From a virus: 64,000 nt of DNA. Numbering within the stretch: position 1 is the first letter of the stretch; every line of letters begins with the position of its first letter. The stretch lies in IMG/VR virus record IMGVR_UViG_3300027747_002579, positions 32,001 to 96,000 of that record. One strand, given 5' to 3'. This document shows, piece by piece, positions 14,601 through 35,793 of the stretch. The translations under genes were made by a program, and so were the position numbers. The notes beneath the pieces are model-generated. The model was not told the origin of the DNA and searched no databases. It saw only the letters and a program-made list of their open reading frames with translations.

Positions 14601-17600
14601 AAAAGGTGCTACACAAAGAGACTCAAAAGATTTAAGATTTTTCAAAGGAATTCTTTCAGAAAGTCTTCATAACGAACTTGTAAATTCCACTAAAAGTATT
14701 GCTGAGATCCATTTTGCATACAAAGACAAAATAGACGAAGAAGTAAAAAAATACATTTATGACAAAGCGGCAAATGAAAAAGCAACACTAACTGACTATG
14801 GTATAATAGGACAAAGAAAAGAAAAGGACGGTAAGGCTGGAACCTATTATGCCAATGGATTAAATTTTGAAGATGATCAAAATGTTCCAATAGAAAGTAT
14901 TGATAGTCTTATTTTATCAAATGTTATTAATTACACTGTTGCAAACATTGATCTTCATAAACTAATTTATTCTGATCCCTATCAATACAAGGATGAATTA
15001 AAACGTACAAAACTTTTCAACTCTCCTCACCAACCACTTATTGGAAACTCTGATGGAATGAATAAAGCCTTCTCTAAGTTTTATAATGAAGGATATGAGA
15101 AAGGTGATGTTCACTGGACAGAGTTTGAATCAGACATACTTAGATCAATCACTTATGATGATATACGAGGAGTGAGTGATAAAGGTGTTTGGGACGAAGG
15201 TGATGGAGGAGGAAAAATTATTTTCAAAGCATATAGACAATTTAGAATTAGAGAAAGTAATTGGAGTGATGATAACGAGTTGCAATACAGATATGACGTA
15301 GCTTGGGAAAAGAGATATAAGAACGAACAACTTCCTAAAGAAGAACAAAAACCTCTTTCTGAAAAAGAACAAGAACTTTTAAAGAATGGTAATCCAGGAG
15401 TTGCAGATACATATACAGCTACAAAGCCTAAAATGGCAGGCAACAAAGCAAATGGTAAATCTTACAATGATGTGTTATTAGACAAATGTGCGTTGTTCCC
15501 TATATCATTTAGAGTGATGATGGAAATAAATCCAACAGCAAATGCATTGAAGCTTTACAACAAAATGCAAAGAGAAAAGATAGACTATGTAATATATAAG
15601 AGTGGTAGAAAAGTGGGAGCTGAAGAAACAAATCCTGTATACACTGATAAGGGAGATTTTGATGAAACTCCATTTAAGGGAGTGGTAAATGTTCCATTTA
15701 GTATAATAAGTAGACAATCAGAAACTCCTTCAAAAGAAAGTTCAAAAACAAAAATGGGTAGTCAAATCACTAAGATTGGCACTACAAACTTTACAGAAGC
15801 TGGCGTACCAATTGATTTTGCAGACTTTAATAAATCCACTAAGTTTTCTCCAGAACGTTTTTTAGAATGGATGAATCTCACTCCTGAAGAAAAAGAAACA
15901 AGATCTCCTATACACAAAGAACTTCAAAACAACAAAAAACTCATTGATGAAATGAGAAATAACAATTACAAGTCTTTGTTGAAGAAGTTTGGTATAAAAG
16001 AATTTGGAAAGAAGGGTGAGGAGAAAATATACACAATTGATGATGTTAAAAAAACTGTTAAGTTGTTAAGAAAAAATCTTTCTTCTATTAACAACAACAT
16101 GATTGACGCATTAGAAGATTTTGAAAATGGTACAACAATACTAGAAGCTACAAACTCCTATCAACAATTAAGAAATGTTCTCTTTGCAATTGCTGATAAA
16201 CAAGTGATTAGTCCTAAAATAACAGGAGCACAATTAGTACAGATGTCTTCAGATATGTTAGAATCAGTGAGAGCTGAAAAAACAACAATCAATGGAAAAA
16301 CAGGATATACATCAGATGTATTAAAGTTTTATGAAGACAAAGATGGTCAAAGAGTTTGTGAAATAATGGTGAGAAGATGGTTTGACAGTGATATGTCAGA
16401 CAAAGAGTTGATGGATTATTTTAATAATAATCCAGAAGGACAAAAACAAATTGCTGCTCTTGCAGGAATTGCCTATCGTATTCCAACACAAAACAAAAAC
16501 TCTATTGATGTCTTCAGAGTTGCTAAGTTTCTTCCACAAGAGTTTCGTGATGTTGTAATTGTTCCATCTGAATTAGTTCACAAAGTGGGATCTGACTTTG
16601 ACATTGATAAGTTGTTTATTTATTTAAAAAACATTGTTACAGGAAGAGATGGTAAACCTAAGCTTATAGAATTTTTAGATGATAATAATTCTACAATAGA
16701 AGAAAGATATCTTAATTGGATAAGAAGTAATGCAAATCTTGATACTAGAAATTACATAAAATTTTTAACTAAAAAATCTGTACAAAATCTTAAATCTAAT
16801 TTTGAATTAGTTCTTTCTAAGATTAAAGCTGATTATAAATTTATTGGAAAAGAAGAAAAAGAAGATCTTTTTCAAACATCATTAGAAACTTCAAAATCTA
16901 ATATAGAATATGAAATATTTGACCAAGAAGCATATCTTCAAGAATTATTTGATATGGGGAAAAAGGTTTTCTGGAGAATGTCAGATGAAACTAGAGGACC
17001 TTTTTGGGAAGTAAGAGATTTTATTAGAAGTAGAAACATTAAAGGTCCTGATGAGATTAAAAGATATCTTTCTCTCACAATTGCTTTATTAGAAGATGAA
17101 ACTACAATAGAAGATGATATTATAAAACTTGAAGGATTAGAAAAAATTTATTCTGAAGAACTCAGAGTGATAGGAGAAACAAATGAAATTATTAATAGAA
17201 TAAAAAAAGAAGCTCTTGATAATTTTAGAAAGAATAAAAAAGTATTAAGTGAAGCTCTTAGAGTAGATAGATCAGCTGAATTTGAAGAATCTTTTGATAT
17301 TTATAAAAACATTAAGTCTCAAATAAGTCTTGAAGCTGCTGAAGAAATTGCGAACATTGATGGTTTGTATACATTTGAAGATTTTAAAAAACTATCTAAA
17401 TATGAACAAAACAATATAGAAGCTTTAGAAAACGCATACATATCTTCTCTAGAAGTACTAACTTCTCATCCTTTAAACTATGAAAAATTAACATCTCCCA
17501 ACTCAGCAAAAGAACTACAAGATTTGTCAATAGAAATTGTTAACAAACTTGGACTTGGTGCATTTGATTATACAAAAACATCAAACTTGTTAGATAGAAG

Positions 17601-19851: not shown

Positions 19852-19852
19852 T

Positions 19853-22800
19853 ATGGCATGTATAAATCCCAACACCCCAGAATTTAAAGCAGCGTTAGAA
19901 AGAAATGGTGGCAATCCATTATTAGCTGAGATGGAATTAAGTGAGAAAGAAATTAAACCAGGAGTGGAAGAATTATTCAATTCCTCTCCTGAGTTGGCTA
20001 ATATAGGAACACAAGAACAATATTCTCAATACTTAGATAGTATATTTCCTGATAGTAAAGTAAAAGAAGTTTTATATCATATGACTTCTTATGATGGAAA
20101 AAAAGGAATAGAACAAAAAGGAAGATTTTTAAAACCTGGAGAAAAAGGTTATCAGAAAAGAGATTATGCAACTACAGGAGGTATTTATTTTACAGATAAT
20201 AATAGTTATGATGAAGATACAGAAATGTATGGTTCTCCTGTTACTGGTGCATATGGTTCAGCTTATGTATCAGCTATTCTAAATATTAAAAACCCACTCA
20301 TTGATTTAACTAAAAGTTTTGGTGATATATCTAAAACAGAATTAAAAGATAATGATGGTTTTGTAGGTACAAATGAATCAAAAGAAATTGGCGTTCTTGA
20401 ACCAGAACAAATACACATATTAGGAAATAAACAAGACATAGAAGGATTTAAAGAGTTTGTTAATAAAAAAGAAACAGCTCCTCTTCTTCAATTAGAGGAA
20501 GGACCTAAAAGCTCAAAAGCTTCCACTCAAACATTAAACAAAATAAAAGAGCTTGCTAAGAAAATAGGAGTGAGCATTCAGAGTCTTTCTGAATATGCAA
20601 AAAACAATCCTGATGTTAAAACATCTTCTATAAATGGATTGGCAGACTTAGTGAAATCAATTGTAGCAATTGCTGATGGAAAAGAAGACGTTGCTCTTAC
20701 AGAAGAAATGGTGCACATTGCTACAGCAATGATAGAGCAAACCAATCCAACATTAATTACAGAAGCTATTTCTAAGATTGATAGATTCAAAATATACAAA
20801 AAAACATTAGACGCATATAAAGATAACAAGCACTATCAACTTCCTAACGGAAAACCTGACATACGCAAAATAAAGAAAGAAGCTGTAGACAAACTAATTG
20901 TGGAAGTGATAATAAACAAATCAGAAGGCTCTACAGAATTTCCAGAATTAATGCAAGAAGAAAATGTTTCATTTGTAAGAAAACTATGGAATAGAATTAT
21001 AGATAAAATATTCTCTAAAGTGAAGGGTTCAAACATAAACATATTTGAACAAATAGGAGAAACAGTGTTAGAAGGAAACATTGAAGGACTTGCAAAAGAT
21101 AAAGGTTTGACAGGCATATATTTGCAAACAGTGTCAGATAAACAAAAAGCTGTACAAGAAAGACTATTAATAGACCAAGACAGAATAACAAAAGTTGTAG
21201 AAACTGCTTCTGTAGATCCAATGTTTTTAGACTCTGAAGACGCTAGTAATTTCTACAATATGAAAAATACAAGCGGTGTAGATGAGAGAGTGGTGAAGAG
21301 AGTGACAGACAGAGTGAAGGCTTGGTATAAGAAGAAGTTTGGAACAAAGGTGTTTAGTGAAGCAGAGAAGAAGTATAACAATATGTTAAGAGACTATGGT
21401 GTCAAAGGACACAATGATTTAGAAGAAATTCATTCTAGATTTTTTCATAAAGATGGTACACAAAAAACAACAGCTTCTCCAAGACCTTCTAAATTCAATG
21501 TAGAAAGCGAAGATATTTATTTAAAGCTTGAAGAATATTACATAGATTTAATAAAGCTTTTAAAAAAACAAAACAATGGTGTTGTTCCTCTTGTCTTCTC
21601 TGAGGTGAAGGTTTATGACCCTAAAGAAAAAGAAGCAGGAACAATAGATTTTCTAGCAATAGACTCTAATGGAAAAGGACACATCCTTGATTGGAAGTTT
21701 ATGAATATTAAAGGAGATGATGTTGCTTGGTATAAAAATGGTGCATTCGATATACAATTAGGAAGATATAAACAAATGCTTCGTGATGTTTATGGAATAA
21801 AAGAATTTGGAATGATTAGAGCAATTCCTATCTCTATGGAATTCACTCTCTCCAACCCAAGAGATGTTAAATCAGATTTGAAACTAAAAGGAATTGGTAT
21901 TGGTAGTGCTGATTCTAGAAAAATAGAAGACATTAAATTAATGCCTATTTCTGAAAAAACAGAATCTACAGGATATTCTAAATTAGACAAGCTCATAAGC
22001 AATATGAATGCTTTGATGTCTAGCTATTCAAAAAAAGAAGTGACTTCTGAAGATGATAAACAGTTTAAAATTGAAACGTTAGAGATATTAAGAAAGGCTA
22101 TAAAGGTGGCACAAGCAACCAATAACTTAGTTCCAATAATTGATGTAATTGAAAAGATTAGAATAGAAGGAGAAAAGTTGTTAAATGATTACAACAGTAA
22201 ATATAAAAATCTATCTCCTACAGACACTTCTGTCTCAAGAAGTGAAATAAATGATTTTTCAGAAAGGATGAGGTTATTTTACAATGCTTCTAATATTTTT
22301 ACAGAAACAGGAAGACAATTGTCACAACTGATTTATGAAGAAGGGATGTTGGAAAAAGCTGTTTCTCCAGAAGAGAAAAAAAATGCAACAGAAAGAAAAC
22401 AATTAGCAGATACACTAAAGAAACAATCTCAGGACATTGCAAACATGAGAGATGATATTAGAGATGAGAGTATTGTGTTTGCAGATAAACAAATAGGAAT
22501 ACGAAATCTTATAACAGGACTTCCTAGTGCAGAAGCTGTATTAAAAGGACTAGGAGCTTTCTTCAGAGGAGCTTCAGACCTTCCTAATGCAGCAATTAGA
22601 GTTTTAGTAAAATTAACTTCTTCTGCCAAAGAAATTGCAGCAAAAGAGTCTTTCGATGAAGTGGAAGAGTTGATGAAAATAAGAAAGAAGATTGTTGATA
22701 GAGGTGGAGATGTTAGATCTTTTGTAAAGAAAATCTATAGAAAGAATGAAAAGAACGAAGTGGTTAATAAGTTAATTTCTAAACATTCTCCTGAGTTCTA

Positions 22801-25273
22801 TAGTGTTATAGATGAATTGGCTGCAAAAGGAGGAGATAGAGAAAAACTATTAAATAACATAGACATAGATGTATATAGAAAGAAAGCTAAAGAGATTATT
22901 GACAAACAGGTGAAAAAAATAATGGAAGAGCGTTGGAGCTATGACGATGCTAAAGACAGTAAAGAAAAACAAAAAAGAGTGGAGGCTGTAGAAAAACTTT
23001 ATGATATAGACAATCCAAATTTCTATGGATGGAACAATTGGATAGTTAAAGGTTCTCCAGCAAATAAATGGATAACAAAAGAATATTTAGAAATACAAGC
23101 TGATGAAGATTTAAAAGCGTTGTATGAATTTATTATAAAAATAAACAATAAAGCAAAAGATGCTGGATACATAAATACAGCAGCCACTTCATTTCTACCA
23201 TTTATAAGAAAGGGAATGGCTGAAGCTCTTGCTTGGGATAGTCCTTTATCAGCTATACAAAAATGGAACGATTCTCTTACGTTAAGACCAGGAGACGTAG
23301 GGTATGGAGAATACGATGAGTTTTCAGGAAAGTTAGAGAATTCAATTCCTAAATATTACACATATGATTTTACAAGAAATGACGAAGGCGTGAATAACTT
23401 TTCTGAAGTGAGTGAAGATATTTTTAAAAATATGATAGTGTATCTTCAGCAAGTGAATAAGTATAAACATCTATCAGAAGTAGAAGAACAGTTACGACTT
23501 GTACGAGAAATAGAAGAATTTAAAGGACACATTCAAACTGATAGGTTTGGGAACGTAGTGATAGAAAACGGTAAGCCTAAAGTGATAGATGTTGAGAATT
23601 CAGAAAATACAAAACTTTATGAAAACTTTCTTAAAGTTTTATTGTATGAACAAAAATATCCACTATCTGATTCAGATATTCCATTAAACGTTGGTAAAGT
23701 GTTGAATGGTGTTAAAGATGCAATAAATTCTCTTGTAGGAAAAGAAGTGTTTAAGAAAGATGAAAACCCAAAAGCTACATCATTGATGAAAGTGATGGAA
23801 GCTGCAAATAGAGGATTTCAAGTAAAAACTTTAGCTTTAGAAATTGTTCCTGGGGCAAGTAACTTTTTTGGAGGTGTTGTACAAATTCTCACACAATCAG
23901 GAGCCTATTTTAATAAAAATGAACTTAGAAAGAATTTAGGAAAATCATTAAAACAGAAGTTTGAAAGCGAAGCAGATAAAGAAATGTTTGTTCAATTAAT
24001 CAACACGTTCATGCCTTTGAAAGATAGTCCTATTTATGAGATGTATAAAAAAGCAGGAATGAGTAGTCTTACAAGAGACAATCTTGGAGACAAGTTAATG
24101 ATCACTATGAGATTTCCTGAGCAAGTGTTAGAAGAAAGTGTATTTCTATCTTTATTAGACAATGCAATGGTAGAGAATGGAGAAATTGTAAACATACAAG
24201 ATTATGTAAAAGCTAAATATCCAAATAGATCAAATTCTTCTACAGAATGGAAAGCTGCAAATGAAGCTATTAAGAAAGAAGTGGAACTATTAAAAGAAAC
24301 AAGGTCTATAACAGCAACAAAAAAACTTGTAAATGGTAAATTAGAAATACCAGGACTTGATTTAACCAATCTATTAGAAATACAAAGACTTACAACATTA
24401 ACTAAACGCACTGTATCAAATGCTTTAGGAGGAGTTTCTGGAGAAAATGTTAATTTGGCAGGAATGAATTTGTGGACAAGTAGCATGATGTTATTTCATA
24501 ATTGGATTCCTAAATTAACAGATACACGGTTTTCTGAATTTAAAAGAGTGAGTGATGATTTTAATGTAAGAATAAATGACGATGGTGTTTCTGAAGGAGA
24601 TAGATATGATGTAGGAAGAATTAGACTTCTTCTCACTGTATTAGGAACTTCTATTAGAGATAGGTCTGCAAATGTAAGTAACATTATTGCAATGAATGAC
24701 AAAGGAGTAGAAACAATAAATGAACTATTTGAAAAATATAGAAAAGAATATGAGGATAGAACAGGACAAGTGTTGAATATGACAAAAGATGATTTTGTAG
24801 ATTTAGTGAGAAAAAATCTAAGAAATCAGTTAAAAGAATTATTAACACTAGCTATTCTATTAGGAATTATGTTCTCTTTTGGATTTATTGCTCCAGACGA
24901 TGATGATGATAAAGCTTCTAAAAATGCATTCAGACTTGCACAAAAAGTTATTAATAAATTTACAGATGAGTTGAGTTTCTTCTATAACCCAATGAATTAT
25001 GAAAAATTATTCAGCGGGTCAATGTTTCCTGCATTAGGGTTGATTTCAGACTTTGAAAGATTTATAACAAACTTCATAATGGAAATTACAGGAATTGATG
25101 TATCTCATCTAGACAGTTCTTCAGAGAAGGTGAGAAAGAAAGCACAACCAATCAAATATCTTATGAAAATGTTTCCTGTATCAAAAGCTGCATTTACATG
25201 GCTTTCTGTATTAAATTCTGATTTTGCTGAAGAGTTTGATGTTACAATACAGAAAGAAAACACAATTAGATAG
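19853..25273 (+). CDS. Multidomain ejection protein: ART-like domain, degenerate zincin, PD-(D/E)xK nuclease-like domain, C-terminal TM helix
   Basis: VLYHMT...GIYFTDN...LNIKNP...EIGVLEPEQI (ART-PolyVal-like); TEEMVH; E...AGTIDF...ILDWK...QLGRY; LLTLAILLGIMFSFGFIA. Confidence 0.7.
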   Translation: MACINPNTPEFKAALERNGGNPLLAEMELSEKEIKPGVEELFNSSPELANIGTQEQYSQYLDSIFPDSKVKEVLYHMTSYDGKKGIEQKGRFLKPGEKGYQKRDYATTGGIYFTDNNSYDEDTEMYGSPVTGAYGSAYVSAILNIKNPLIDLTKSFGDISKTELKDNDGFVGTNESKEIGVLEPEQIHILGNKQDIEGFKEFVNKKETAPLLQLEEGPKSSKASTQTLNKIKELAKKIGVSIQSLSEYAKNNPDVKTSSINGLADLVKSIVAIADGKEDVALTEEMVHIATAMIEQTNPTLITEAISKIDRFKIYKKTLDAYKDNKHYQLPNGKPDIRKIKKEAVDKLIVEVIINKSEGSTEFPELMQEENVSFVRKLWNRIIDKIFSKVKGSNINIFEQIGETVLEGNIEGLAKDKGLTGIYLQTVSDKQKAVQERLLIDQDRITKVVETASVDPMFLDSEDASNFYNMKNTSGVDERVVKRVTDRVKAWYKKKFGTKVFSEAEKKYNNMLRDYGVKGHNDLEEIHSRFFHKDGTQKTTASPRPSKFNVESEDIYLKLEEYYIDLIKLLKKQNNGVVPLVFSEVKVYDPKEKEAGTIDFLAIDSNGKGHILDWKFMNIKGDDVAWYKNGAFDIQLGRYKQMLRDVYGIKEFGMIRAIPISMEFTLSNPRDVKSDLKLKGIGIGSADSRKIEDIKLMPISEKTESTGYSKLDKLISNMNALMSSYSKKEVTSEDDKQFKIETLEILRKAIKVAQATNNLVPIIDVIEKIRIEGEKLLNDYNSKYKNLSPTDTSVSRSEINDFSERMRLFYNASNIFTETGRQLSQLIYEEGMLEKAVSPEEKKNATERKQLADTLKKQSQDIANMRDDIRDESIVFADKQIGIRNLITGLPSAEAVLKGLGAFFRGASDLPNAAIRVLVKLTSSAKEIAAKESFDEVEELMKIRKKIVDRGGDVRSFVKKIYRKNEKNEVVNKLISKHSPEFYSVIDELAAKGGDREKLLNNIDIDVYRKKAKEIIDKQVKKIMEERWSYDDAKDSKEKQKRVEAVEKLYDIDNPNFYGWNNWIVKGSPANKWITKEYLEIQADEDLKALYEFIIKINNKAKDAGYINTAATSFLPFIRKGMAEALAWDSPLSAIQKWNDSLTLRPGDVGYGEYDEFSGKLENSIPKYYTYDFTRNDEGVNNFSEVSEDIFKNMIVYLQQVNKYKHLSEVEEQLRLVREIEEFKGHIQTDRFGNVVIENGKPKVIDVENSENTKLYENFLKVLLYEQKYPLSDSDIPLNVGKVLNGVKDAINSLVGKEVFKKDENPKATSLMKVMEAANRGFQVKTLALEIVPGASNFFGGVVQILTQSGAYFNKNELRKNLGKSLKQKFESEADKEMFVQLINTFMPLKDSPIYEMYKKAGMSSLTRDNLGDKLMITMRFPEQVLEESVFLSLLDNAMVENGEIVNIQDYVKAKYPNRSNSSTEWKAANEAIKKEVELLKETRSITATKKLVNGKLEIPGLDLTNLLEIQRLTTLTKRTVSNALGGVSGENVNLAGMNLWTSSMMLFHNWIPKLTDTRFSEFKRVSDDFNVRINDDGVSEGDRYDVGRIRLLLTVLGTSIRDRSANVSNIIAMNDKGVETINELFEKYRKEYEDRTGQVLNMTKDDFVDLVRKNLRNQLKELLTLAILLGIMFSFGFIAPDDDDDKASKNAFRLAQKVINKFTDELSFFYNPMNYEKLFSGSMFPALGLISDFERFITNFIMEITGIDVSHLDSSSEKVRKKAQPIKYLMKMFPVSKAAFTWLSVLNSDFAEEFDVTIQKENTIR

Positions 25274-25305
25274 CCATATTATCTTGTATAGATTTTAGAC
25301 AGACA

Positions 25306-25334
25306 TTGTAATTCTCTATAAATAACTATTTTTG
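25306..25334 (+). promoter_or_regulatory. Putative Bacteroidota-type promoter (TTG...TATTTTTG)
   Basis: TAnnTTTG at 25327-25334, TTG 18 nt upstream, ATG 7 nt downstream. Confidence 0.5.
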
Positions 25335-25341
25335 TATTCTT

Positions 25342-26103
25342 ATGAACATTAATTGTGGTAATATTGGTTGTCCAGATATAATAGATTCTTCTTGTGTATT
25401 TTATACAGGACAGAATTTATTATACATAGGTGTTAACACTAATGATACAATACAAACTTCTCTCCAGAAGATAGATGCAAAAATACAATCTGTATTAGCA
25501 AACAGCACATTACAAGGTTCAGGAACAGCGAATAGAATAGCTAAATGGGCAGCTTCCACCAACCTGACAAATTCTAACATAACAGATGATGGCACCACTG
25601 TAACAATCACTAGTGCAGCTACAATTAGTGGAGTTTCTATTTTAAATAACATTCTCACTATTAATAAAGTGCTCCCTAGTGGTTCTACAATATTTAAAAT
25701 AAATAGTGGAGCTTCTTTTTTAGGAAGTCAATTTGAATTTCAAAACTTTCTAGATGCAGGATTATTAAAAATAGGATATTTTGGCAATGCTGGTAATAGA
25801 ATAGAAATAGATGGAGGATCAAATAACACTGCTCCCACTATAAAATTCTATGAGAAAATTGGTTCTTCAGCTCCTACATTAAATACTTGGATTAATTCTA
25901 ATACACTTGGTGGATTTACATATTTCAATGCAGGAAATTTTCTGATTGGTAAAACAACAAATGGAAATTATAAATTTGATTTGAACGGAAACATACGGGT
26001 GAGTGGAATTGTAGAATATGCATCAAACGCAGCAGCTTTATCAGCAGGACTATTAGCTGGAGCTTTCTATAGAACAGGAGAATTTTTAAAAGTGGTTTAT
26101 TAA
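25342..26103 (+). CDS. Fibre/structural protein
   Basis: Cys-rich N-terminus (CVFYTG), GSGTANRIAKW segment shared with next gene, G/N/T-rich beta repeats. Confidence 0.6.
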   Translation: MNINCGNIGCPDIIDSSCVFYTGQNLLYIGVNTNDTIQTSLQKIDAKIQSVLANSTLQGSGTANRIAKWAASTNLTNSNITDDGTTVTITSAATISGVSILNNILTINKVLPSGSTIFKINSGASFLGSQFEFQNFLDAGLLKIGYFGNAGNRIEIDGGSNNTAPTIKFYEKIGSSAPTLNTWINSNTLGGFTYFNAGNFLIGKTTNGNYKFDLNGNIRVSGIVEYASNAAALSAGLLAGAFYRTGEFLKVVY

Positions 26104-26115
26104 AAACAAAACAAA

Positions 26116-27510
26116 ATGCCAAAACAAATAGGATGGAGCAATGAGAGTAATCTCCTCTATCAAATCTCTCAACAAATAACAAGGCTAATAAATGTAACAG
26201 GTACAAATGGTGGAGGGTCTATTACAGGATCTGGTACAACAAATTACATTCCTAAGTGGACATCTTCTTCATCATTGAACAATAGTGTTATTTATCAATC
26301 CTCTACAGGTAATATAGGAATAGGCACTACAACACCTTCTCAAAAATTAGATGTTAATGGTAATGTTACAGCTACATATGTTATTGCAGTTAATGAATTT
26401 TATGGCAGCAGTATTAGAGTGAATGGGTTTTATGCAAACACAATAGCTTATATGCCATTTTACTCAAACATATCTCCTTATGGAGAAATAATGAGGGTAA
26501 ATAATAATGGTTCATTATGGATTAACAGGACAACAGATGATGGATCTGGAGCTAAGTTGCAAGTGAATGGTAATATAAGTACGCCTAATAATATTTCTTC
26601 ATTTTTAAATGCAACAACTTTTACATTAAGTAATACTTACATGGGATATGCTGGTGGTAATATACAATTTGCCAAAAGCGATTATGGAACAAGAACGATG
26701 ACCATTTTTGATTCAACAGGCAATGTTTTAATTGGAAGTGGAACATCAGAAATAAACACAGGATATAAGTTACAAGTTGATGGTGGTTTTATAAGTAGAT
26801 TAGGAGGACCAAGCTTTGCCGTTTTAAATTATATTGGTTCAGCAACTTTATATGGTGGTTATGGTGATTTTATAACAAATACTGATAATTATTTTGTAAG
26901 AGCAGACGGTTTAAATGTAGTTCATAAAATACCTTCTACTAATGGATTTATGCTATTCAACACTTCAACTGGAACTGCTATGAAATTGTTAGATAGTGGT
27001 ACTTTTTTAATCAACAGAACAACAGATGATGGAACAGGTTCAACATTACAAGTGAATGGTGGAATTTCTCAAGCTGGAGCAAATAATTATAATTATTTTG
27101 CATCAAAAGTGTTGATAGGTACAACTACTCCAAGTGCTGGATTAATGACTGTTGCAGGCGATATATACCCTAGTGCAAACAATACGTATGAATTAGGTAA
27201 AACTAATAATTTGTGGTTAGCAATAAATACATCAAATTATGTTAATTATGGTTCTACGAATTCGAATTATTTTGCATCTGAAGGACATAAATTTAATGTT
27301 GATTTTGTTTCACCAGTATTAACAATTACAAGTAATAAAAATGTATTAATAGGTACAACAGCAAATAACGGTCGAAAATTAGTAGTAGCTGGACAACAAG
27401 AATGGATAACGACAGTTGGTACTGGTGTACATACAACAAGCGGAAATCACCTTCCTATTTGGGTAAATGGTGTTCAATATTGGTTAGCATTATTAAATCC
27501 TGTAGTATAA
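26116..27510 (+). CDS. Tail (or head) fibre protein
   Basis: Repeated GNxxIGTT...KLxVxG modules; duplicated INRTTDDG...LQVNG; N-terminal KQIGWS segment. Confidence 0.75.
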   Translation: MPKQIGWSNESNLLYQISQQITRLINVTGTNGGGSITGSGTTNYIPKWTSSSSLNNSVIYQSSTGNIGIGTTTPSQKLDVNGNVTATYVIAVNEFYGSSIRVNGFYANTIAYMPFYSNISPYGEIMRVNNNGSLWINRTTDDGSGAKLQVNGNISTPNNISSFLNATTFTLSNTYMGYAGGNIQFAKSDYGTRTMTIFDSTGNVLIGSGTSEINTGYKLQVDGGFISRLGGPSFAVLNYIGSATLYGGYGDFITNTDNYFVRADGLNVVHKIPSTNGFMLFNTSTGTAMKLLDSGTFLINRTTDDGTGSTLQVNGGISQAGANNYNYFASKVLIGTTTPSAGLMTVAGDIYPSANNTYELGKTNNLWLAINTSNYVNYGSTNSNYFASEGHKFNVDFVSPVLTITSNKNVLIGTTANNGRKLVVAGQQEWITTVGTGVHTTSGNHLPIWVNGVQYWLALLNPVV

Positions 27511-29379: not shown

Positions 29380-29922
29380 ATGGCAAGAAAAATATTTGTA
29401 TCTTCAGGACATGGCGGAATTGATAAAGGTGCTTCTTCAGGACAATTTATTGAAAGAGATCTTACAATAGAATTTAGAAATCTATTAACATTAGAGCTTC
29501 AAAAACTAGGAGTGAAATGGTCTACAGATGCAGACACAAATGCTCTAAAAGAAACATTAGATTTCATAAAGGGGAAGTTTCTTCCTTCTGACATTCTATT
29601 AGACATTCATTTTAATGCAGGTGGTGGAGAAGGTGTAGAAGTGGTAATTCCTAACGTATCTTCTGCATTTGAACAAAGACTTGCTCAATCAATTGTTGAT
29701 ACAATAAGTAAATTGACAGGGTTTAAAAAGAGACAAGGAGGTGTGATTCCTGAATCTTCTACAGCACGAAAAACTCTAGGATGGATGAGACCTAATTCTG
29801 AAAACATATTAATAGAAATGTGTTTTATTGATAACAAATCAGACATGCTCACCTACCAATTAAACAAGGTTAAGATTGCTAAAGAAGTGGCAAAGGTAAT
29901 TTCTGATTTTACAAAATTATAA
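29380..29922 (+). CDS. Endolysin, N-acetylmuramoyl-L-alanine amidase (Amidase_3)
   Basis: GHGG.D.GA...E, DIHFNA and LIEMCFIDN zinc-amidase motifs. Confidence 0.9.
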   Translation: MARKIFVSSGHGGIDKGASSGQFIERDLTIEFRNLLTLELQKLGVKWSTDADTNALKETLDFIKGKFLPSDILLDIHFNAGGGEGVEVVIPNVSSAFEQRLAQSIVDTISKLTGFKKRQGGVIPESSTARKTLGWMRPNSENILIEMCFIDNKSDMLTYQLNKVKIAKEVAKVISDFTKL

Positions 29923-29946: not shown

Positions 29947-30081
29947 ATGATCAGTAAACAAATAGGCTGGAGTCAAGAAGCAAATCTTCTCTACGAAATT
30001 AGCAACAAGCTGGAAAGATTAATACAAGTGAGTGGAAGTCCTTCAACAACTACATCCACCACCACTACGACAGCACCTTAA
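29947..30081 (+). CDS. 44-aa fibre-N-terminus/Thr-tail microprotein (not in ORF track)
   Basis: MISKQIGWSQEANLLYEISNKLERLIQVSGSPSTTTSTTTTTAP; clearly similar to N-terminus of the 26116 fibre; A-rich leader. Confidence 0.8.
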   Translation: MISKQIGWSQEANLLYEISNKLERLIQVSGSPSTTTSTTTTTAP

Positions 30082-30104
30082 CAAACATAAACCAACAACT
30101 ACAT

Positions 30105-30695
30105 ATGAAAGAGTTAGTATTTATTTGCGAAACATGGAAGCGTTGTCCAGGGTATGAATCTTCTTATGAAGTTAGTACACTTGGGAATGTTAGAAGTATT
30201 GACAGAATATCTGGAAATAGACGTGGAGTGATTAAGAGTAAATTACTAAAATCTTATATTAATAAAAAAGGATATTTAGAAGTAAGATTGTATAAAAATT
30301 CTAAGCACATTTTTAAAATAATACATAGATTGATTGCTAAAGCTTTTTTACCAAATGAAAACAAACCACAAGTCAATCATATAGATGGTAATAAGTTAAA
30401 CAATAGAGTAGACAATCTTCAATGGGTTGATAATTCAGAAAATCAACTACATGCTTATAAATTAGGATTACAACCTAGTAGAGCTGGTGAGAACAATGTT
30501 AAAGCAAAAATTAAAGATAAAGATGTAACTTTATTAAAAGAGTTATATAACTCTGGTAAAACTATTGCTGAAGTTTCTAATATAACAAAAATAAGTGTAA
30601 GTTCAATTAGAGCAATTATTTATGGAAATACTTGGAAATCTAATACAACAGCAATTATAAAAAGAGATGATAGATTTAAACCAACAACAGTATGA
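30105..30695 (+). CDS. Free-standing NUMOD4-HNH homing endonuclease
   Basis: ETWK..PGYE..YEVSTLGNVRS (NUMOD4); IHRLIA...VNHIDGNKLNNRVDNLQW (HNH); C-terminal HTH. Confidence 0.9.
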   Translation: MKELVFICETWKRCPGYESSYEVSTLGNVRSIDRISGNRRGVIKSKLLKSYINKKGYLEVRLYKNSKHIFKIIHRLIAKAFLPNENKPQVNHIDGNKLNNRVDNLQWVDNSENQLHAYKLGLQPSRAGENNVKAKIKDKDVTLLKELYNSGKTIAEVSNITKISVSSIRAIIYGNTWKSNTTAIIKRDDRFKPTTV

Positions 30696-31702
30696 TTAAA
30701 GAATTAAAGTTTTTGTGCTCGCAGCCAGATGATTCGTATTATAAATGGCAAACACATCTATGGCTAGAGAGTCTTAAGAAAATAGGAAAGAGTGAACAAG
30801 CTATTGTATTAGTTTACACTCCCGCAGAAAGGCAATACAATACAGAATGGGACGAATTAAAAGAACTCTATCCAGAAGCAACATTTGGTTTCTATAGAGA
30901 TGAAGATGGTGTATCAGACTTTATTCCAATTTATATTCCAGTGTTGCGTCCTTACACATTAATGAGATGGTTCAAAGATCATCCAGAGATGAAAGACAAA
31001 GCCATTTTCTATTGTGATTGTGACATTGTGTTTACAGAGAATTTCAACATCGATGCTTACATAAATGATGATGTGTGTTATCTGTCTGACACAAACTCTT
31101 ACATAAACGCTTCATATTTTGATAGCAAGAAAAATGATGTTCTACAGGACAAACAAGAACTATACAACACAAGAGACGTATTAAACGAACTCACATCTCT
31201 TATAGGAATAAATAGACAAATAGCTGAAGCAAATAATTTACATTCAGGAGGAGCACAATATCTTCTGAAGAACATAGATTATAAGTTTTGGCAGAAAGTG
31301 TTTAGTGATTGTATTCTTATTAGAAGATTTTTGTTAAACATTAACGGACAATTCTTTGAGAGTGAGAACAAAGGATTTCAAAGTTGGTGTGCTGACATGT
31401 GGGCTGTCTTGTGGAACCTTTGGTATAAAGGATACACAACACAAGTGGTGAAAGAAATGGACTTTGCATGGGCAACTGACCATATATCAAGAATGGATTC
31501 TATAGGACTGTTTCATAATGCAGGAATATCCAATACAGATATGGGACATTACAAAGCATTCTATAAAGGAAAATATATACATGGTGTCTCTCCATTCAGT
31601 GATTTAGATGAGGTGTATAACAACGAAGAGAGTAAGAAGTATTGTACACATTATTATGTCAGTCAGTTGGTAGAATTGAAAAACAAATACAATTTAAAAT
31701 AA
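30692..31702 (+). CDS. GT-A glycosyltransferase, peptide O-glycosyltransferase-like
   Basis: FYCDCDIVF DxD motif, GGAQYLL, WCADMWA, FHNAG. Confidence 0.65.
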   Translation: MIKELKFLCSQPDDSYYKWQTHLWLESLKKIGKSEQAIVLVYTPAERQYNTEWDELKELYPEATFGFYRDEDGVSDFIPIYIPVLRPYTLMRWFKDHPEMKDKAIFYCDCDIVFTENFNIDAYINDDVCYLSDTNSYINASYFDSKKNDVLQDKQELYNTRDVLNELTSLIGINRQIAEANNLHSGGAQYLLKNIDYKFWQKVFSDCILIRRFLLNINGQFFESENKGFQSWCADMWAVLWNLWYKGYTTQVVKEMDFAWATDHISRMDSIGLFHNAGISNTDMGHYKAFYKGKYIHGVSPFSDLDEVYNNEESKKYCTHYYVSQLVELKNKYNLK

Positions 31703-31707
31703 ATAAA

Positions 31708-32109
31708 ATGCAATTAGACAACAAATTAAAAGCGTTCGTTAGATATGATGGATCAGAAAGAATCGTTCCTGGTTCTCTCATTCTTAGAAAAAACAAGCCT
31801 AAAGTGGGCAATTGGAAGCAAGTGTCTTCAAACTATTGTTGTGATGGCATAGGTATTAATTACACTCCTGGTAGCTTAACTATTGCAAATGTTGATTTGA
31901 CATTAACGTGCTCTAGTGGAAAATCTATTGTTGTAAATACAAATACAGCATCCACTAACATGGTGACATTGTTAGCAGCATTAAACACTTCTGCAGGATA
32001 TTTAGGTGTATTTACATCTCCTGATGGAGCAACTGTAAATTTTGTAGTGAACACATCTGTAGCAAGTACATTGTGTTATGGAGCCACTTTATCGTTCTCT
32101 ATAGCGTAA
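31708..32109 (+). CDS. Putative virion accessory protein
   Basis: ATG 31708; KAFVRYDG...GSLILRKNKPKVGNW N-terminus, CC, Thr/Ser/Val-rich beta domain. Confidence 0.5.
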   Translation: MQLDNKLKAFVRYDGSERIVPGSLILRKNKPKVGNWKQVSSNYCCDGIGINYTPGSLTIANVDLTLTCSSGKSIVVNTNTASTNMVTLLAALNTSAGYLGVFTSPDGATVNFVVNTSVASTLCYGATLSFSIA

Positions 32110-33118: not shown

Positions 33119-33280
33119 ATGAAAAAAGCAATAAAGCAATTTCAAGCAGGTGGTGTTGCAAGCAAATCTCCTAAAGCTCCATTAGTAGATCCAAAAGGAG
33201 CATTCACAAAAGTGCAAAAGAGAACATTAGCTAATAAGAAAATGTCTACAAAAATGTCTAAAATGTCTAAAAAGAAATAA
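33119..33280 (+). CDS. Lys-rich microprotein 1 (53 aa)
   Basis: MKKAIKQFQAGGVASK...KMSKMSKKK, hand-translated. Confidence 0.7.
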   Translation: MKKAIKQFQAGGVASKSPKAPLVDPKGAFTKVQKRTLANKKMSTKMSKMSKKK

Positions 33281-33281
33281 C

Positions 33282-33446
33282 ATGGCAACAGACAAAAAGT
33301 GGATACAGAAGGCAGTCAAAACTATGCGTACAGATAAACCTTGTACAGGATCTAAGTTTGGATCTAAAACTTGTCCTCCAGGATCTAAGCGTTATAATTT
33401 AGCTAAAACATTCAAAGCCATGGGAAGAGCAAGAAAAGGAAAATAA
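33282..33446 (+). CDS. Lys-rich microprotein 2 (54 aa)
   Basis: MATDKKWIQKAVK...CTGSKFGSKTCPPGSKRYNLAKTFKAMGRARKGK, hand-translated. Confidence 0.75.
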   Translation: MATDKKWIQKAVKTMRTDKPCTGSKFGSKTCPPGSKRYNLAKTFKAMGRARKGK

Positions 33447-33574
33447 TGAAAAAGAAAATAACAGACGTTTGGAGCGATGTTAAAAAATCTATGGTTTCTC
33501 CTAAAGAAGAAAACTTTATGAAAAAACAAAAGAGAAAACTCTCCAAAATAAAACCCATAAAGAAACAAAAATGA
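33446..33574 (+). CDS. Lys-rich microprotein 3 (42 aa)
   Basis: MKKKITDVWSDVKK...KIKPIKKQK; TAATG and ATGA coupling. Confidence 0.65.
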   Translation: MKKKITDVWSDVKKSMVSPKEENFMKKQKRKLSKIKPIKKQK

Positions 33575-33720
33575 AAAAGATGATTAAGAGGGCAGATGGT
33601 TCTACATCTCAACATGGTCTTTGGGATTCTATTCGTGAAAACAAAGGCAGTGGAAAGAAGCCCACAAAAGCTATGTTAACACAAGAGAAGAAAATAAAAG
33701 CAAAAGCTAAAAAGAAATAA
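33571..33720 (+). CDS. Lys-rich microprotein 4 (49 aa)
   Basis: MKKMIKRADGSTSQHGLWDSIRENKGSGKKPTKAMLTQEKKIKAKAKKK. Confidence 0.75.
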   Translation: MKKMIKRADGSTSQHGLWDSIRENKGSGKKPTKAMLTQEKKIKAKAKKK

Positions 33721-33722
33721 TA

Positions 33723-34034
33723 ATGGCTTACATTAAGAAGTCTGGTCCTTGGAATCCACAGAAAGCTGAAGCCTATGTAGGTAAAGGTGTTCTAAAGAAC
33801 GGAGGAAATGTAAAAGTGAGTGCAGGTGGTGAGAAGCATGTTGTATATAAAAAAACAAGTGCTACAGGAATAGGCAAGGGTAAGAAAGGTGATATTATGG
33901 TAAACCATCCTACAAAAGACAAAGGAAAATGGGACACTATAGACCTCACACAAAAATCAAAAGCTAAAACTATTAAACAAGGAGTGGCTTCTGTTAAGAA
34001 GTGGCACAAAGAACATCCTTACAAAAAGAAATAA
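33723..34034 (+). CDS. Lys-rich protein 5 (103 aa)
   Basis: ORF track; basic; LKNGG motif. Confidence 0.75.
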   Translation: MAYIKKSGPWNPQKAEAYVGKGVLKNGGNVKVSAGGEKHVVYKKTSATGIGKGKKGDIMVNHPTKDKGKWDTIDLTQKSKAKTIKQGVASVKKWHKEHPYKKK

Positions 34035-34035
34035 C

Positions 34036-34302
34036 ATGGCAACTGTTAAAAAAACACACAAAACACCTGCATGGACCCGCTCTGAAGGTAAATCAAAATC
34101 AGGAGGATTGAATGCTAAAGGAAGAGCTTCTTACAACAAAGCTACAGGAGGACATTTAAAACCCCCACAACCAGAGGGTGGTCCAAGAAAGAAATCATTT
34201 TGTAGTAGAATGTCAGGAATGAAGAAGAAGCTTACAAGTTCTAAAACTGCTAATGATCCTAACAGCAGAATTAACAAAAGTCTTCGTAAATGGAAGTGCT
34301 AA
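34036..34302 (+). CDS. Lys/Arg-rich protein 6 (88 aa, DUF6321-like)
   Basis: AWTRSEGK..SGGLNAKGRASY...RKKSFCSRM...SRINKSLRKWKC. Confidence 0.75.
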   Translation: MATVKKTHKTPAWTRSEGKSKSGGLNAKGRASYNKATGGHLKPPQPEGGPRKKSFCSRMSGMKKKLTSSKTANDPNSRINKSLRKWKC

Positions 34303-34321
34303 AAAACAAATAATAATAATT

Positions 34322-34741
34322 ATGAAAACTGTTAAGAAATCAGCAGCTAAGAAAATGGTTAAGAAAGCTGCTCCTAAAATGATGGCAAAGCCTGCCCCTA
34401 AAATGCCTATGCAAGCTCCTCAACAAGAAGCTCCTATGATGAAAATAGGTGGTAAGATGCCTAAGGCTAATTTTGGTCAAAATTTATTAAAAGGACCAAT
34501 AGGAATGGGTATTGACATGATTAAGAACAATAACAAACCTGCTACACCTCCTGCTAATTCAATGATGAAGAAGGGTGGAACAATGAAGAAAGCTAAAGCA
34601 GGTGGATCATTTCCTGATCTTAACAAAGATGGTAAAATCACCAAAGCTGATGTATTAGTTGGACGTGGTGTTATCAAGTCTCCTAAGAAGACAATGAAGA
34701 CTGGTGGCACAATGAAGAAATGTAAAATGGGTTGTTACTAA
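34322..34741 (+). CDS. Lys/Met-rich low-complexity protein 7 with EF-hand-like motif
   Basis: ATG 34322; MKKGG-type repeats; FPDLNKDGKITKADVL. Confidence 0.75.
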   Translation: MKTVKKSAAKKMVKKAAPKMMAKPAPKMPMQAPQQEAPMMKIGGKMPKANFGQNLLKGPIGMGIDMIKNNNKPATPPANSMMKKGGTMKKAKAGGSFPDLNKDGKITKADVLVGRGVIKSPKKTMKTGGTMKKCKMGCY

Positions 34742-34895: not shown

Positions 34896-34925
34896 AATCC
34901 CCTCAATTACGAGGGGATTTTTGTT
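34896..34925. terminator. Intrinsic terminator at convergence of the two arms (likely bidirectional)
   Basis: AATCCCCTC-aattac-GAGGGGATT 9-bp stem followed by T-rich tract. Confidence 0.8.
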
Positions 34926-35793
34926 ATAATAAGTGTAGATAATCAGAGTGATTTCCCCAATAGTCTTGATTTAAATATAAATCATGAGTGTTATATATAC
35001 TGTAGTGTGATGTGAAATGTTTGCCATGATTTATGTGCACGGCTGGATTTATACATTTCCATTTTCTTCTCTTTATGTACTGAGGCTCAATCATTCCACT
35101 GTTTGTAATAAGAGCATTTGCAAGAATTTCTTCACAATGTGTAATTGCATCAGCAAACTTCATAGTCATTTGATGAAATGGCTCATGGTCTGCTGTCTTG
35201 TCTTGCCATCCCATTTTATTAATTCCCATGTAGTTCATGTTAGTGATCACTTCACCATTATTAAATTCTGGATAGTCAAAATATCCTTCTGGATAGAGAA
35301 CATCATGTTCTAAAAAAGAAACATATTCATAATTATGAATTTCTCTAGCAGCATATAAGAGCTGCATAATTTGCAACAATTGATTTAAATGAGAAGAAGT
35401 TTTTGTCCAAGCTATATATTCTACAAAAGGATTTTCTGGCTCGTGTTGCCACATACAAGTTAATATGTCAGCTTTTCCTTCTGCTGCTTTTTTAATTGAT
35501 GCCAATGAAGCTCTTATTGCAGGATATATTTCAGGAGTGTTGTTGTTAGAATAAAATATTCCAAGTTTGTTTTTTGTAGAAAGTGGAAAAACAAGAAGAT
35601 CTCCCTCTCTTATAGACAAGTTGTGAATTTTTTCATCATGTTCTATTTCTACATTAAGATATTTTACAGTTCCTGTAGAAGGATCTCCTATTATGTTATT
35701 ATTAGAATGAGTGATTAATATATTATTCTTCATTCTTTTTTGCATTACATCTGTACAGTCTACATCACCATACGTAGCTTTTATTATTTTCAT
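34924..35793 (-). CDS. SUEL/Gal-lectin-like domain fused to GT-A glycosyltransferase-like domain
   Basis: KIIKATYG.VDCT...GDPSTGTVKYL.V (lectin-like); YVSFLEHDVLYP (DxD-like). Confidence 0.6.
   Translation of the reverse strand: MKIIKATYGDVDCTDVMQKRMKNNILITHSNNNIIGDPSTGTVKYLNVEIEHDEKIHNLSIREGDLLVFPLSTKNKLGIFYSNNNTPEIYPAIRASLASIKKAAEGKADILTCMWQHEPENPFVEYIAWTKTSSHLNQLLQIMQLLYAAREIHNYEYVSFLEHDVLYPEGYFDYPEFNNGEVITNMNYMGINKMGWQDKTADHEPFHQMTMKFADAITHCEEILANALITNSGMIEPQYIKRRKWKCINPAVHINHGKHFTSHYSIYNTHDLYLNQDYWGNHSDYLHLL

Follow-up and report, generated by a model that had tools for sequence, protein, structure and literature searches.

A 64,000-nucleotide (nt) stretch of viral DNA (bases 32001-96000 of the 107.7-kb IMG/VR virus record IMGVR_UViG_3300027747_002579; hereafter, the window) encodes a 44-residue microprotein with a Ser/Thr tail (29947-30081, + strand) upstream of a 336-residue enzyme (30692-31702, +). 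Comparative genomics and fold prediction indicate that the two genes probably belong to a system of virion O-glycosylation, in which the enzyme would O-glycosylate Thr runs of structural proteins, including that of the microprotein. The evidence comes from the predicted fold of the enzyme, from the conservation of the microprotein gene beside it in related viruses, and from the joint presence or absence of enzyme and poly-Thr tail in distant phages. An earlier note on this DNA had described the microprotein, an HNH gene and the enzyme as open reading frames (ORFs) of the locus, with the Ser/Thr-tailed ORF upstream of the enzyme, and all three ORFs and their positions were confirmed.

Fold and family of the enzyme

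The enzyme matches phrog_4417 (E 3e-52), a PHROG family of unknown function. No named family was found for it by Pfam, NCBIfam or PDB sequence searches; in Pfam at E<=0.1, the only match was a spurious one to DUF1280, with Glyco_transf_8 (CAZy GT8) absent, and the Glyco_transf_8 profile was likewise unmatched in 54 homologues. One database contains 2,170 clusters of this family at E<=0.001, and 774 representatives (50% identity) were obtained from a second. An alignment of 54 sequences, extending to 29% identity, revealed that D109-x-D111, Q230, H275 and K292 are invariant. The motifs DCD, GGAQY and WCADMWA, to which the earlier note had drawn attention, are present, and fall on columns that are invariant or nearly so (D109, D111, G186, G187, Q189 and W232). 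A DxD motif with a downstream His is the usual pattern of metal-dependent glycosyltransferases. Neither a membrane segment nor a signal peptide was found in the enzyme. In some homologues, the enzyme is joined to a GT2, GT6, GT29, DXD-sugar-binding or methyltransferase domain, an association that assigns the family to glycan assembly.

An AlphaFold2 model built from the 54-sequence family alignment consists of a single GT-A domain, with a mean predicted local distance difference test (pLDDT) score of 97.1. Comparison of the model with 48,161 chains by VIA-align gave Z scores of 14.5 for glycogenin, 13.7 for both the Skp1 alpha-galactosyltransferase and LgtC, and 13.6 for UGGT, with lower values for WbbM (13.2), GlyE (12.7) and A64R, the capsid enzyme of Paramecium bursaria chlorella virus 1 (PBCV-1; 11.1). 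The alignments to GT-A enzymes span residues 2-336, and Foldseek agreed, with a probability of 1.0 to many enzymes of this fold. Several of the best matches are protein-directed enzymes, and the viral structural neighbours are uncharacterised or GT8-like by label. The model thus bears out the GT-A fold that had been proposed from the sequence, and supports, with high confidence, a GT-A-fold glycosyltransferase that is nearest to the retaining enzymes of GT8, GT24 and GT6. Nothing in these comparisons pointed to a DNA-modifying or lipopolysaccharide enzyme, a match that the earlier note had named as an argument against its own proposal.

The GT8-type retaining enzymes glycogenin, GlyE, Skp1 alpha-galactosyltransferase and UGGT have the same fold over most of the chain (Z 12.7-14.5), and resemble the phage enzyme in the DxD motif and in a conserved His of putatively equivalent role. 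Several of them act on protein acceptors, including Ser-rich repeats, GlyE being part of the pneumococcal serine-rich-repeat protein pathway. The sequence identity to these enzymes is, in contrast, just 6-11%, and the phage enzyme does not match their Pfam profile; the likeness to GT8 is one of predicted fold, and not of sequence membership. An N-acetylglucosamine-1-phosphotransferase, the Stealth-type CpsY and nucleotidyltransferases also appear among the fold matches (Z ~9-10), and the nucleotide-diphospho-sugar transferase fold is common to all these enzymes, which leaves a very small probability that a sugar-phosphate or a nucleotide is transferred to Thr, giving phosphodiester-linked tails. 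These matches, however, score below the GT8/GT24/GT6 group (Z 9-10 compared to 12.7-14.5), and the pattern of DxD and His generally accompanies the transfer of sugars by metal-dependent glycosyltransferases, the activity that is favoured here.

A more specific resemblance, to the plant peptide O-glycosyltransferases HPAT (GT95) and SERGT (GT96), had been proposed from the WCADMWA motif and was not established. The Pfam HPAT profile (PF23452) gave no hmmscan match to the enzyme or to any of the 54 homologues, and a profile search started from distant homologues retrieved no HPAT-annotated proteins. Genome searches with PF23452 and DUF7164 (PF23741) were also empty, which is weak evidence, as the control genomes were silent as well. 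In the ESM Atlas, a neighbouring viral cluster carries HPAT on 10% of its members, and a structurally similar bacterial cluster carries PqqD combined with HPAT on 55% of its members. The type of acceptor, hydroxyls in a repetitive disordered peptide, would be common to HPAT, SERGT1 and the phage enzyme; the HPAT profile is unmatched here, as described, and the likeness of the motifs was put forward in the earlier note. The plant connection is a lead only.

The microprotein gene and the HNH insertion

The microprotein consists of an N-terminal segment of about 28 residues, a short linker, and a 10-residue Ser/Thr tract with eight Thr (30043-30072, +), the predicted O-glycosylation site, which is followed by Ala-Pro and the stop codon. 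The tract is the sole run of at least six Ser/Thr residues inside a long ORF in the window. The N-terminal module occurs in just two genes of the 107.7-kb genome, that of the microprotein and that of a 464-residue fibre-like protein (26116-27510, +), the first ~28 residues of which are paralogous to it.

The pairing of the two genes was examined in 80 related viral contigs (the relatives), in which the enzyme is 60-65% identical. A poly-Thr-tailed ORF lies directly 5′ of the enzyme gene, or of an inserted ORF of the size of the HNH gene, in about 59-61 of the 80, a pairing far beyond chance. The earlier note had proposed a test for co-occurrence of the glycosyltransferase with such ORFs, and co-occurrence is seen here. 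The upstream ORFs nearly always encode 44-65 residues with the N-terminal module of the microprotein, and 42 distinct orthologue sequences were obtained from the position immediately 5′ of the enzyme gene. Across the first 27 codons, the mean nonsynonymous divergence (dN) is 0.19 and the mean synonymous divergence (dS) is 1.28, a ratio of 0.15, which indicates purifying selection on the N-terminus. In the microprotein and its orthologues, the Thr codons are mixed, with ~3 different codons per run on average, and selection on the protein is therefore favoured over a DNA repeat. The length of the Thr runs peaks sharply at seven (50/84 runs in this lineage), and the tails end either in a small residue and Pro, or in a hydrophobic residue.

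As judged from these comparisons, the microprotein gene is a real and conserved gene, not debris. The ORF does correspond to the first ~28 residues of a neighbour joined to low-complexity sequence, at a junction rearranged by the HNH element, as might be expected for the dead remnant of a duplicated fibre gene. The number of distinct orthologues at the same position, the low dN/dS, the conservation of tail length and terminal residues, and the mixed Thr codons all argue against such a remnant, and the chance of it is minimal. Two other ways of reading the locus were rejected. Read-through of the microprotein stop codon was ruled out by several stops downstream, and a single gene for microprotein and enzyme, split or interrupted by an intron, was ruled out by the relatives that lack the HNH gene, which have two genes 25-37 nt apart.

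The gene just 3′ of the enzyme gene (31708-32109, +) has no poly-Thr tail in this virus; its start resembles that of poly-Thr-tailed proteins encoded directly upstream of the enzyme in some relatives.

The microprotein and enzyme genes are separated in the window by the gene of a free-standing, 196-residue HNH homing endonuclease (30105-30695, +) with NUMOD4, HNH_3 and helix-turn-helix domains. Scanned in the window copy, the ORF matches NUMOD4 (E 6.5e-13) and HNH_3 (E 1.4e-10) in Pfam, and phrog_59 (E 6e-46). An ORF of similar size with the same start is present at this site in 11 of the 80 relatives, and absent in the others. In HNH-free relatives, the microprotein stop codon is followed, after 25-37 nt, by a single leader (AAACCAACAA...), and then by the start codon of the enzyme. 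In the window and in the HNH-bearing relatives, the HNH gene opens with the enzyme leader and the first six or seven enzyme codons (5′ junction, 30089-30107), and at its 3′ end the leader occurs again, ahead of a new enzyme start (30678-30694). The upstream copy of the 11-bp leader, AAACCAACAAC (30089-30099, +), originally served the enzyme gene and now serves the HNH gene; the downstream copy (30678-30688, +) lies within the final HNH codons, and restores the leader and start of the enzyme. The reuse of the leader and first codons, together with the replacement copy, identifies the HNH gene, from its junctions, as a selfish element that has inserted into the 5′ end of the enzyme gene while maintaining enzyme expression. 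In the ancestral order, as reconstructed by sequence comparison, the microprotein gene was directly followed by the enzyme gene. The statement that only an HNH insertion separates the two genes is correct in that no other gene intervenes; the insertion is not simply intergenic, and extends over the enzyme leader and its first few codons. Phages have other free-standing HNH homing endonucleases with the same NUMOD4 and HNH_3 domains, and these are likewise polymorphic in presence and absence at one site. Unlike these, the gene in the window reuses the leader and first codons of its target, and brings a replacement copy at its 3′ end.

Poly-Thr tails and the enzyme family in distant phages

A tblastn search of 50,697 phage records with the enzyme (E<=1e-5) retrieved homologues in 77 records, mainly of Firmicutes phages, at 26-33% identity. 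Every lineage that was examined (at least nine) has a structural protein that bears a Thr tract, and in most of them this protein is encoded directly upstream of the enzyme. In Enterococcus phage phiFL1A, the protein directly upstream is the tail tube, which bears a long poly-Thr tail, and the major head protein is tailed too. At 80 prophage loci of Enterococcus, the proteins encoded in this position are of the major head or major tail type; 76 of 78 ORFs that lie <=200 nt from the enzyme start end in poly-Thr, the two exceptions being short ORFs in other frames. The tail tube is again the protein directly upstream in Clostridium phage phiCTP1 and in Staphylococcus phage PT1-1, where it has a run of 16 Thr. 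In Lactobacillus phage iLp84, a 125-residue protein, about half of which is Thr runs, is encoded directly upstream, and the major head and tail proteins are also tailed. An Ig-domain protein with TTV-x-P repeats lies directly upstream in Lactobacillus phage SAC12B, two genes with long internal tracts lie upstream in Chryseobacterium phage MA9V-3, and a tailed tail protein is encoded 2-3 kb away in both Lactococcus phage bIL285 and Enterococcus phage 9183. The enzyme gene is located between head and tail genes, and not in lysogenic-conversion or replication modules, in phiFL1A, bIL285, phiCTP1, iLp84, 9183 and PT1-1, which are Firmicutes phages from five host genera. In SAC12B, it adjoins replication and lysis genes, and the neighbours in MA9V-3 are unannotated.

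The relation between tail and enzyme was followed in 27 homologues of the phiFL1A tail tube (65-100% identity), with 4-kb flanks. By raw count, 12 of the 27 have a poly-Thr tail, and the enzyme gene is immediately downstream in 12/12; the other 15 lack the tail, and the enzyme gene is found in 0/15. Forms with both tail and enzyme, and forms without a tail, coexist at ~84% and at ~66% identity to the query, and all eight homologues at 99-100% identity carry both. This pattern crosses three identity classes, and requires several joint gains or losses of tail and enzyme.

These data also bear on the proposal that the enzyme acts elsewhere, on host envelope glycans, teichoic acids or phage DNA, and that the poly-Thr segments are mere flexible linkers encoded nearby. 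TarP, a phage GT-A enzyme that acts on wall teichoic acid, is found lower in the fold lists, and domains of polysaccharide-type glycosyltransferases are fused to some homologues. Against this, the tail and the enzyme are gained or lost jointly among close tail-tube homologues, the enzyme gene lies within the head and tail modules of six Firmicutes phages and encodes no segment for membrane insertion or export, and protein-directed enzymes are among the top fold matches. Action on such other targets is improbable, and modification of the Thr-tailed structural proteins is preferred.

A reverse test, in which arbitrary viral stretches with eight consecutive ACN codons were collected, found a member of the enzyme family in 7 of 118, which by rough judgement is well above expectation for so rare a family, and suggests enrichment only. 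The literature searched contained no account of the phrog_4417 family, and none of phage proteins tagged with poly-Thr.

Two of the distant phages showed further peculiarities of their Thr-rich sequences. At 10692-11985 of SAC12B, an annotated holin and the Ig-domain protein both end in many TTV-x-P repeats, a Thr-rich tag unlike the runs of seven Thr. In phage 9183 (~2780-2892), a canonical -1 slippery heptamer, CCCAAAA, occurs just before the end of the major head gene; the -1 frame stays open for ~35 further codons, mostly for Thr or Ser, and stops ~110 nt before the glycosyltransferase homologue. Frameshifting at this site, if it takes place, may give a fraction of the capsid subunits a poly-Thr tail.

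Predicted acceptors, proposed mechanism and known systems

The genome of the window encodes four further proteins with Ser/Thr tracts, in or beside the structural block and all outside the window (coordinates in this paragraph are those of the genome). A 399-residue protein (11586-12785) has a C-terminal Ser/Thr tail of 20 residues, and a 105-residue protein (14959-15276) also has a Ser/Thr tail at its C-terminus. A 1724-residue virion structural protein (19779-24953) contains ~200 residues of internal Ser/Thr runs near its C-terminus, and the 350-residue protein encoded by the next gene (24968-26020) has a tract of ~55 residues near its N-terminus. The tail of the 399-residue protein is kept in 80/80 of its nearest homologues, typically ending in Ile-Pro or similar, and follows a pattern of Cys, two Ser/Thr runs split by Trp-Pro or similar, and then Leu-Ile-Pro. 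PDB sequence searches with this protein and with the major head protein gave no match. The microprotein is thus predicted to be one of several acceptors, the one encoded beside the enzyme. The idea that microprotein and enzyme form an enzyme-substrate pair is supported by the conservation of the one beside the other; with four more tract proteins in the genome, the microprotein is not the sole likely substrate.

In the proposed mechanism, the enzyme would be a cytoplasmic, metal-dependent (DxD...His) GT-A glycosyltransferase that uses a nucleotide-sugar. It would transfer sugar to Thr runs, typically of seven residues, in disordered tails and linkers, before or during particle assembly. The predicted substrates are the microprotein, the C-terminal tails of the 399- and 105-residue proteins, and the internal tracts of the 1724- and 350-residue proteins. 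A role for the microprotein is suggested by the relatives, in which two to four tandem genes encode the same N-terminal module followed by C-terminal parts that are different and much larger, as expected for the docking or oligomerisation segment of interchangeable fibres. We infer such a docking role for the common N-terminal segment from these sequences. With little more than this segment and the tag, the microprotein would fit into a fibre-type position of the particle, from which it would present a short brush of glycans. The benefit of the virion glycans may lie in shielding, adhesion or stability.

Several points weigh against this proposal. In about 19-21 of the 80 relatives, no poly-Thr ORF lies beside the enzyme gene, and the microprotein is therefore dispensable for retention of the enzyme. 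Its presence in the particle is itself deduced from sequence. The co-variation counts (12/12 compared to 0/15) were taken without correction for shared ancestry. In the reverse test, most of the poly-ACN stretches had no family member inside the fetched fragment, the fragments being short and many of the stretches not being read as Thr. H275 was likened to the metal-binding His of GT8 from the sequence pattern, and a common fold, here a predicted one, proves neither activity nor acceptor. The whole case is one of comparative genomics and predicted fold.

The relatives without a microprotein, roughly a quarter of the total, would also be compatible with a product that functions outside the virion. 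The enzyme might glycosylate the microprotein to yield an assembly regulator or decoy, which would compete for the docking site of the full-length fibre, a protein with which the microprotein has just the N-terminal segment in common, or to yield a released glycopeptide, as in the leader-dependent glycosylation of peptides. Hints of a peptide-directed activity come from the bacterial cluster in which PqqD is combined with an HPAT-like domain, and from a GenBank note on phage 9183 that cites similarity to the PqqD family. The phage enzyme, however, has no extra peptide-binding domain, its model being a single GT-A domain, and the microprotein shows no sign of an export signal. Furthermore, the tagged proteins of the Firmicutes phages are major subunits of the head and the tail tube, and by definition components of the particle. 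A function outside the virion is accordingly rated as rather unlikely, and glycosylation of the particle itself remains the preferred explanation.

A broader generalisation is put forward tentatively, and with less than even confidence: that a very widespread family of peptide O-glycosyltransferases recognises ~7 Thr as a portable tag, that the phages of Firmicutes and Bacteroidota possess in it a modular glyco-tag, which any surface protein may gain or lose, and that the microprotein of this lineage, a fibre docking helix joined to nothing but the tag, builds a mucin-like brush on the particle by way of fibre sockets.

To our knowledge, mycobacteriophages are the only phages for which glycosylated particles have been demonstrated to date. 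Virion glycosylation in mycobacteriophages is reportedly the subject of work by Freeman et al. in 2023 (Cell Host Microbe 31:1216). According to two reports that cite this work, the virion glycans of the mycobacteriophages Che8, Corndog and Myrna are attached to the C-terminal ends of capsid and tail-tube subunits, and lower antibody recognition (PMC12363180, PMC12619734). The likeness to the present system is twofold, in that phage glycosyltransferase genes accompany structural genes in both, and that the C-termini of capsid or tail-tube subunits are concerned, here as predicted acceptors. No Mycobacterium phages were among the 77 records with tblastn homologues, and the enzyme family therefore differs from the mycobacteriophage one at the sequence level. 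The present system also differs in its tag of ~7 Thr, in its hosts (Firmicutes and, probably, Bacteroidota), and in having a dedicated, predicted microprotein substrate. A system that is analogous to that of the mycobacteriophages but distinct from it is the best reading of these comparisons, and its new parts would be the enzyme family, the defined poly-Thr tag and the microprotein substrate. PBCV-1 offers a second precedent, A64R being a virus-encoded, cytoplasmic GT-A enzyme that glycosylates the capsid protein of its own virus. PBCV-1 differs in being a virus of eukaryotes, in its atypical, N-linked glycans and in its lack of poly-Thr tags, and A64R belongs to another glycosyltransferase family.

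If the proposal is correct, a sugar coat would be a common feature of virions in the phages that infect gut, dairy, clinical and aquatic bacteria. This would have a bearing on phage therapy, by way of immune recognition and clearance, and would also be relevant to the stability of virions and to their adhesion to mucus or host surfaces. One cytoplasmic enzyme and a short encoded tag would, in addition, be useful for the production of defined glycoproteins in bacteria. The simplest possible substrate for a test is the microprotein.

Genome setting and neighbouring genes

The locus lies in a block of + strand genes that begins 5′ of the window, where the genes for the large terminase, portal and major head protein are found, and continues through giant ORFs, fibre-like genes and lysis genes to ~34.9 kb of the window, beyond which the genes are on the - strand. 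This layout fits the description of the locus as part of a late operon. The first of the four locus genes encodes an Amidase_3 endolysin (29380-29922, +), and is followed by the microprotein, HNH and enzyme genes. The closest terminase is that of the Leptolyngbya phage Lbo-JY46 (40% identity), followed by those of the Cellulophaga phages phi4:1 and phi17:2 (33%), whereas those of crAss-like phages are just 26-30% identical. The phage had been regarded as crAss-like. Because its terminase is closer to those of Lbo-JY46 and the Cellulophaga phages than to those of crAss-like phages, it is placed, on terminase sequence, as a distant, aquatic relative of that group and not as a typical member. Its host is probably a member of the Bacteroidota.

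A second glycosyltransferase-like gene, at 34924-35793 on the - strand, encodes a 289-residue protein that had been described as a lectin-glycosyltransferase and as a possible extender of the glycan. Its AlphaFold2 model (pLDDT 90.7) contains a GT-A/GT2-like domain in residues 73-289, with VIA-align Z scores of 13.8 to a Leptospira glycosyltransferase and 13.3 to SpsA, and the glycosyltransferase part of the description is thereby upheld. The N-terminal, beta-rich domain (residues 1-72) is unclassified, and an E-H-D triplet is invariant in the GT-A/GT2-like domain. Homologues number 865 in metagenomes. The gene is absent within 6 kb in 54 related loci, and absent from five complete related genomes that carry the 336-residue enzyme. 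It is therefore an accessory gene and not a conserved partner of the system, and an obligatory second step performed by its product was ruled out; the protein may add to the glycan in this phage.

Within the + strand block, a 4744-residue ORF (5617-19851, +) is followed by an 1806-residue ORF, and no significant PHROG family was found for the large proteins of 938, 905 and 1806 residues encoded near the 4744-residue ORF. The block ends, before the strand switch, in a series of short, very Lys-rich ORFs of 42-162 residues (33119-34741, +).

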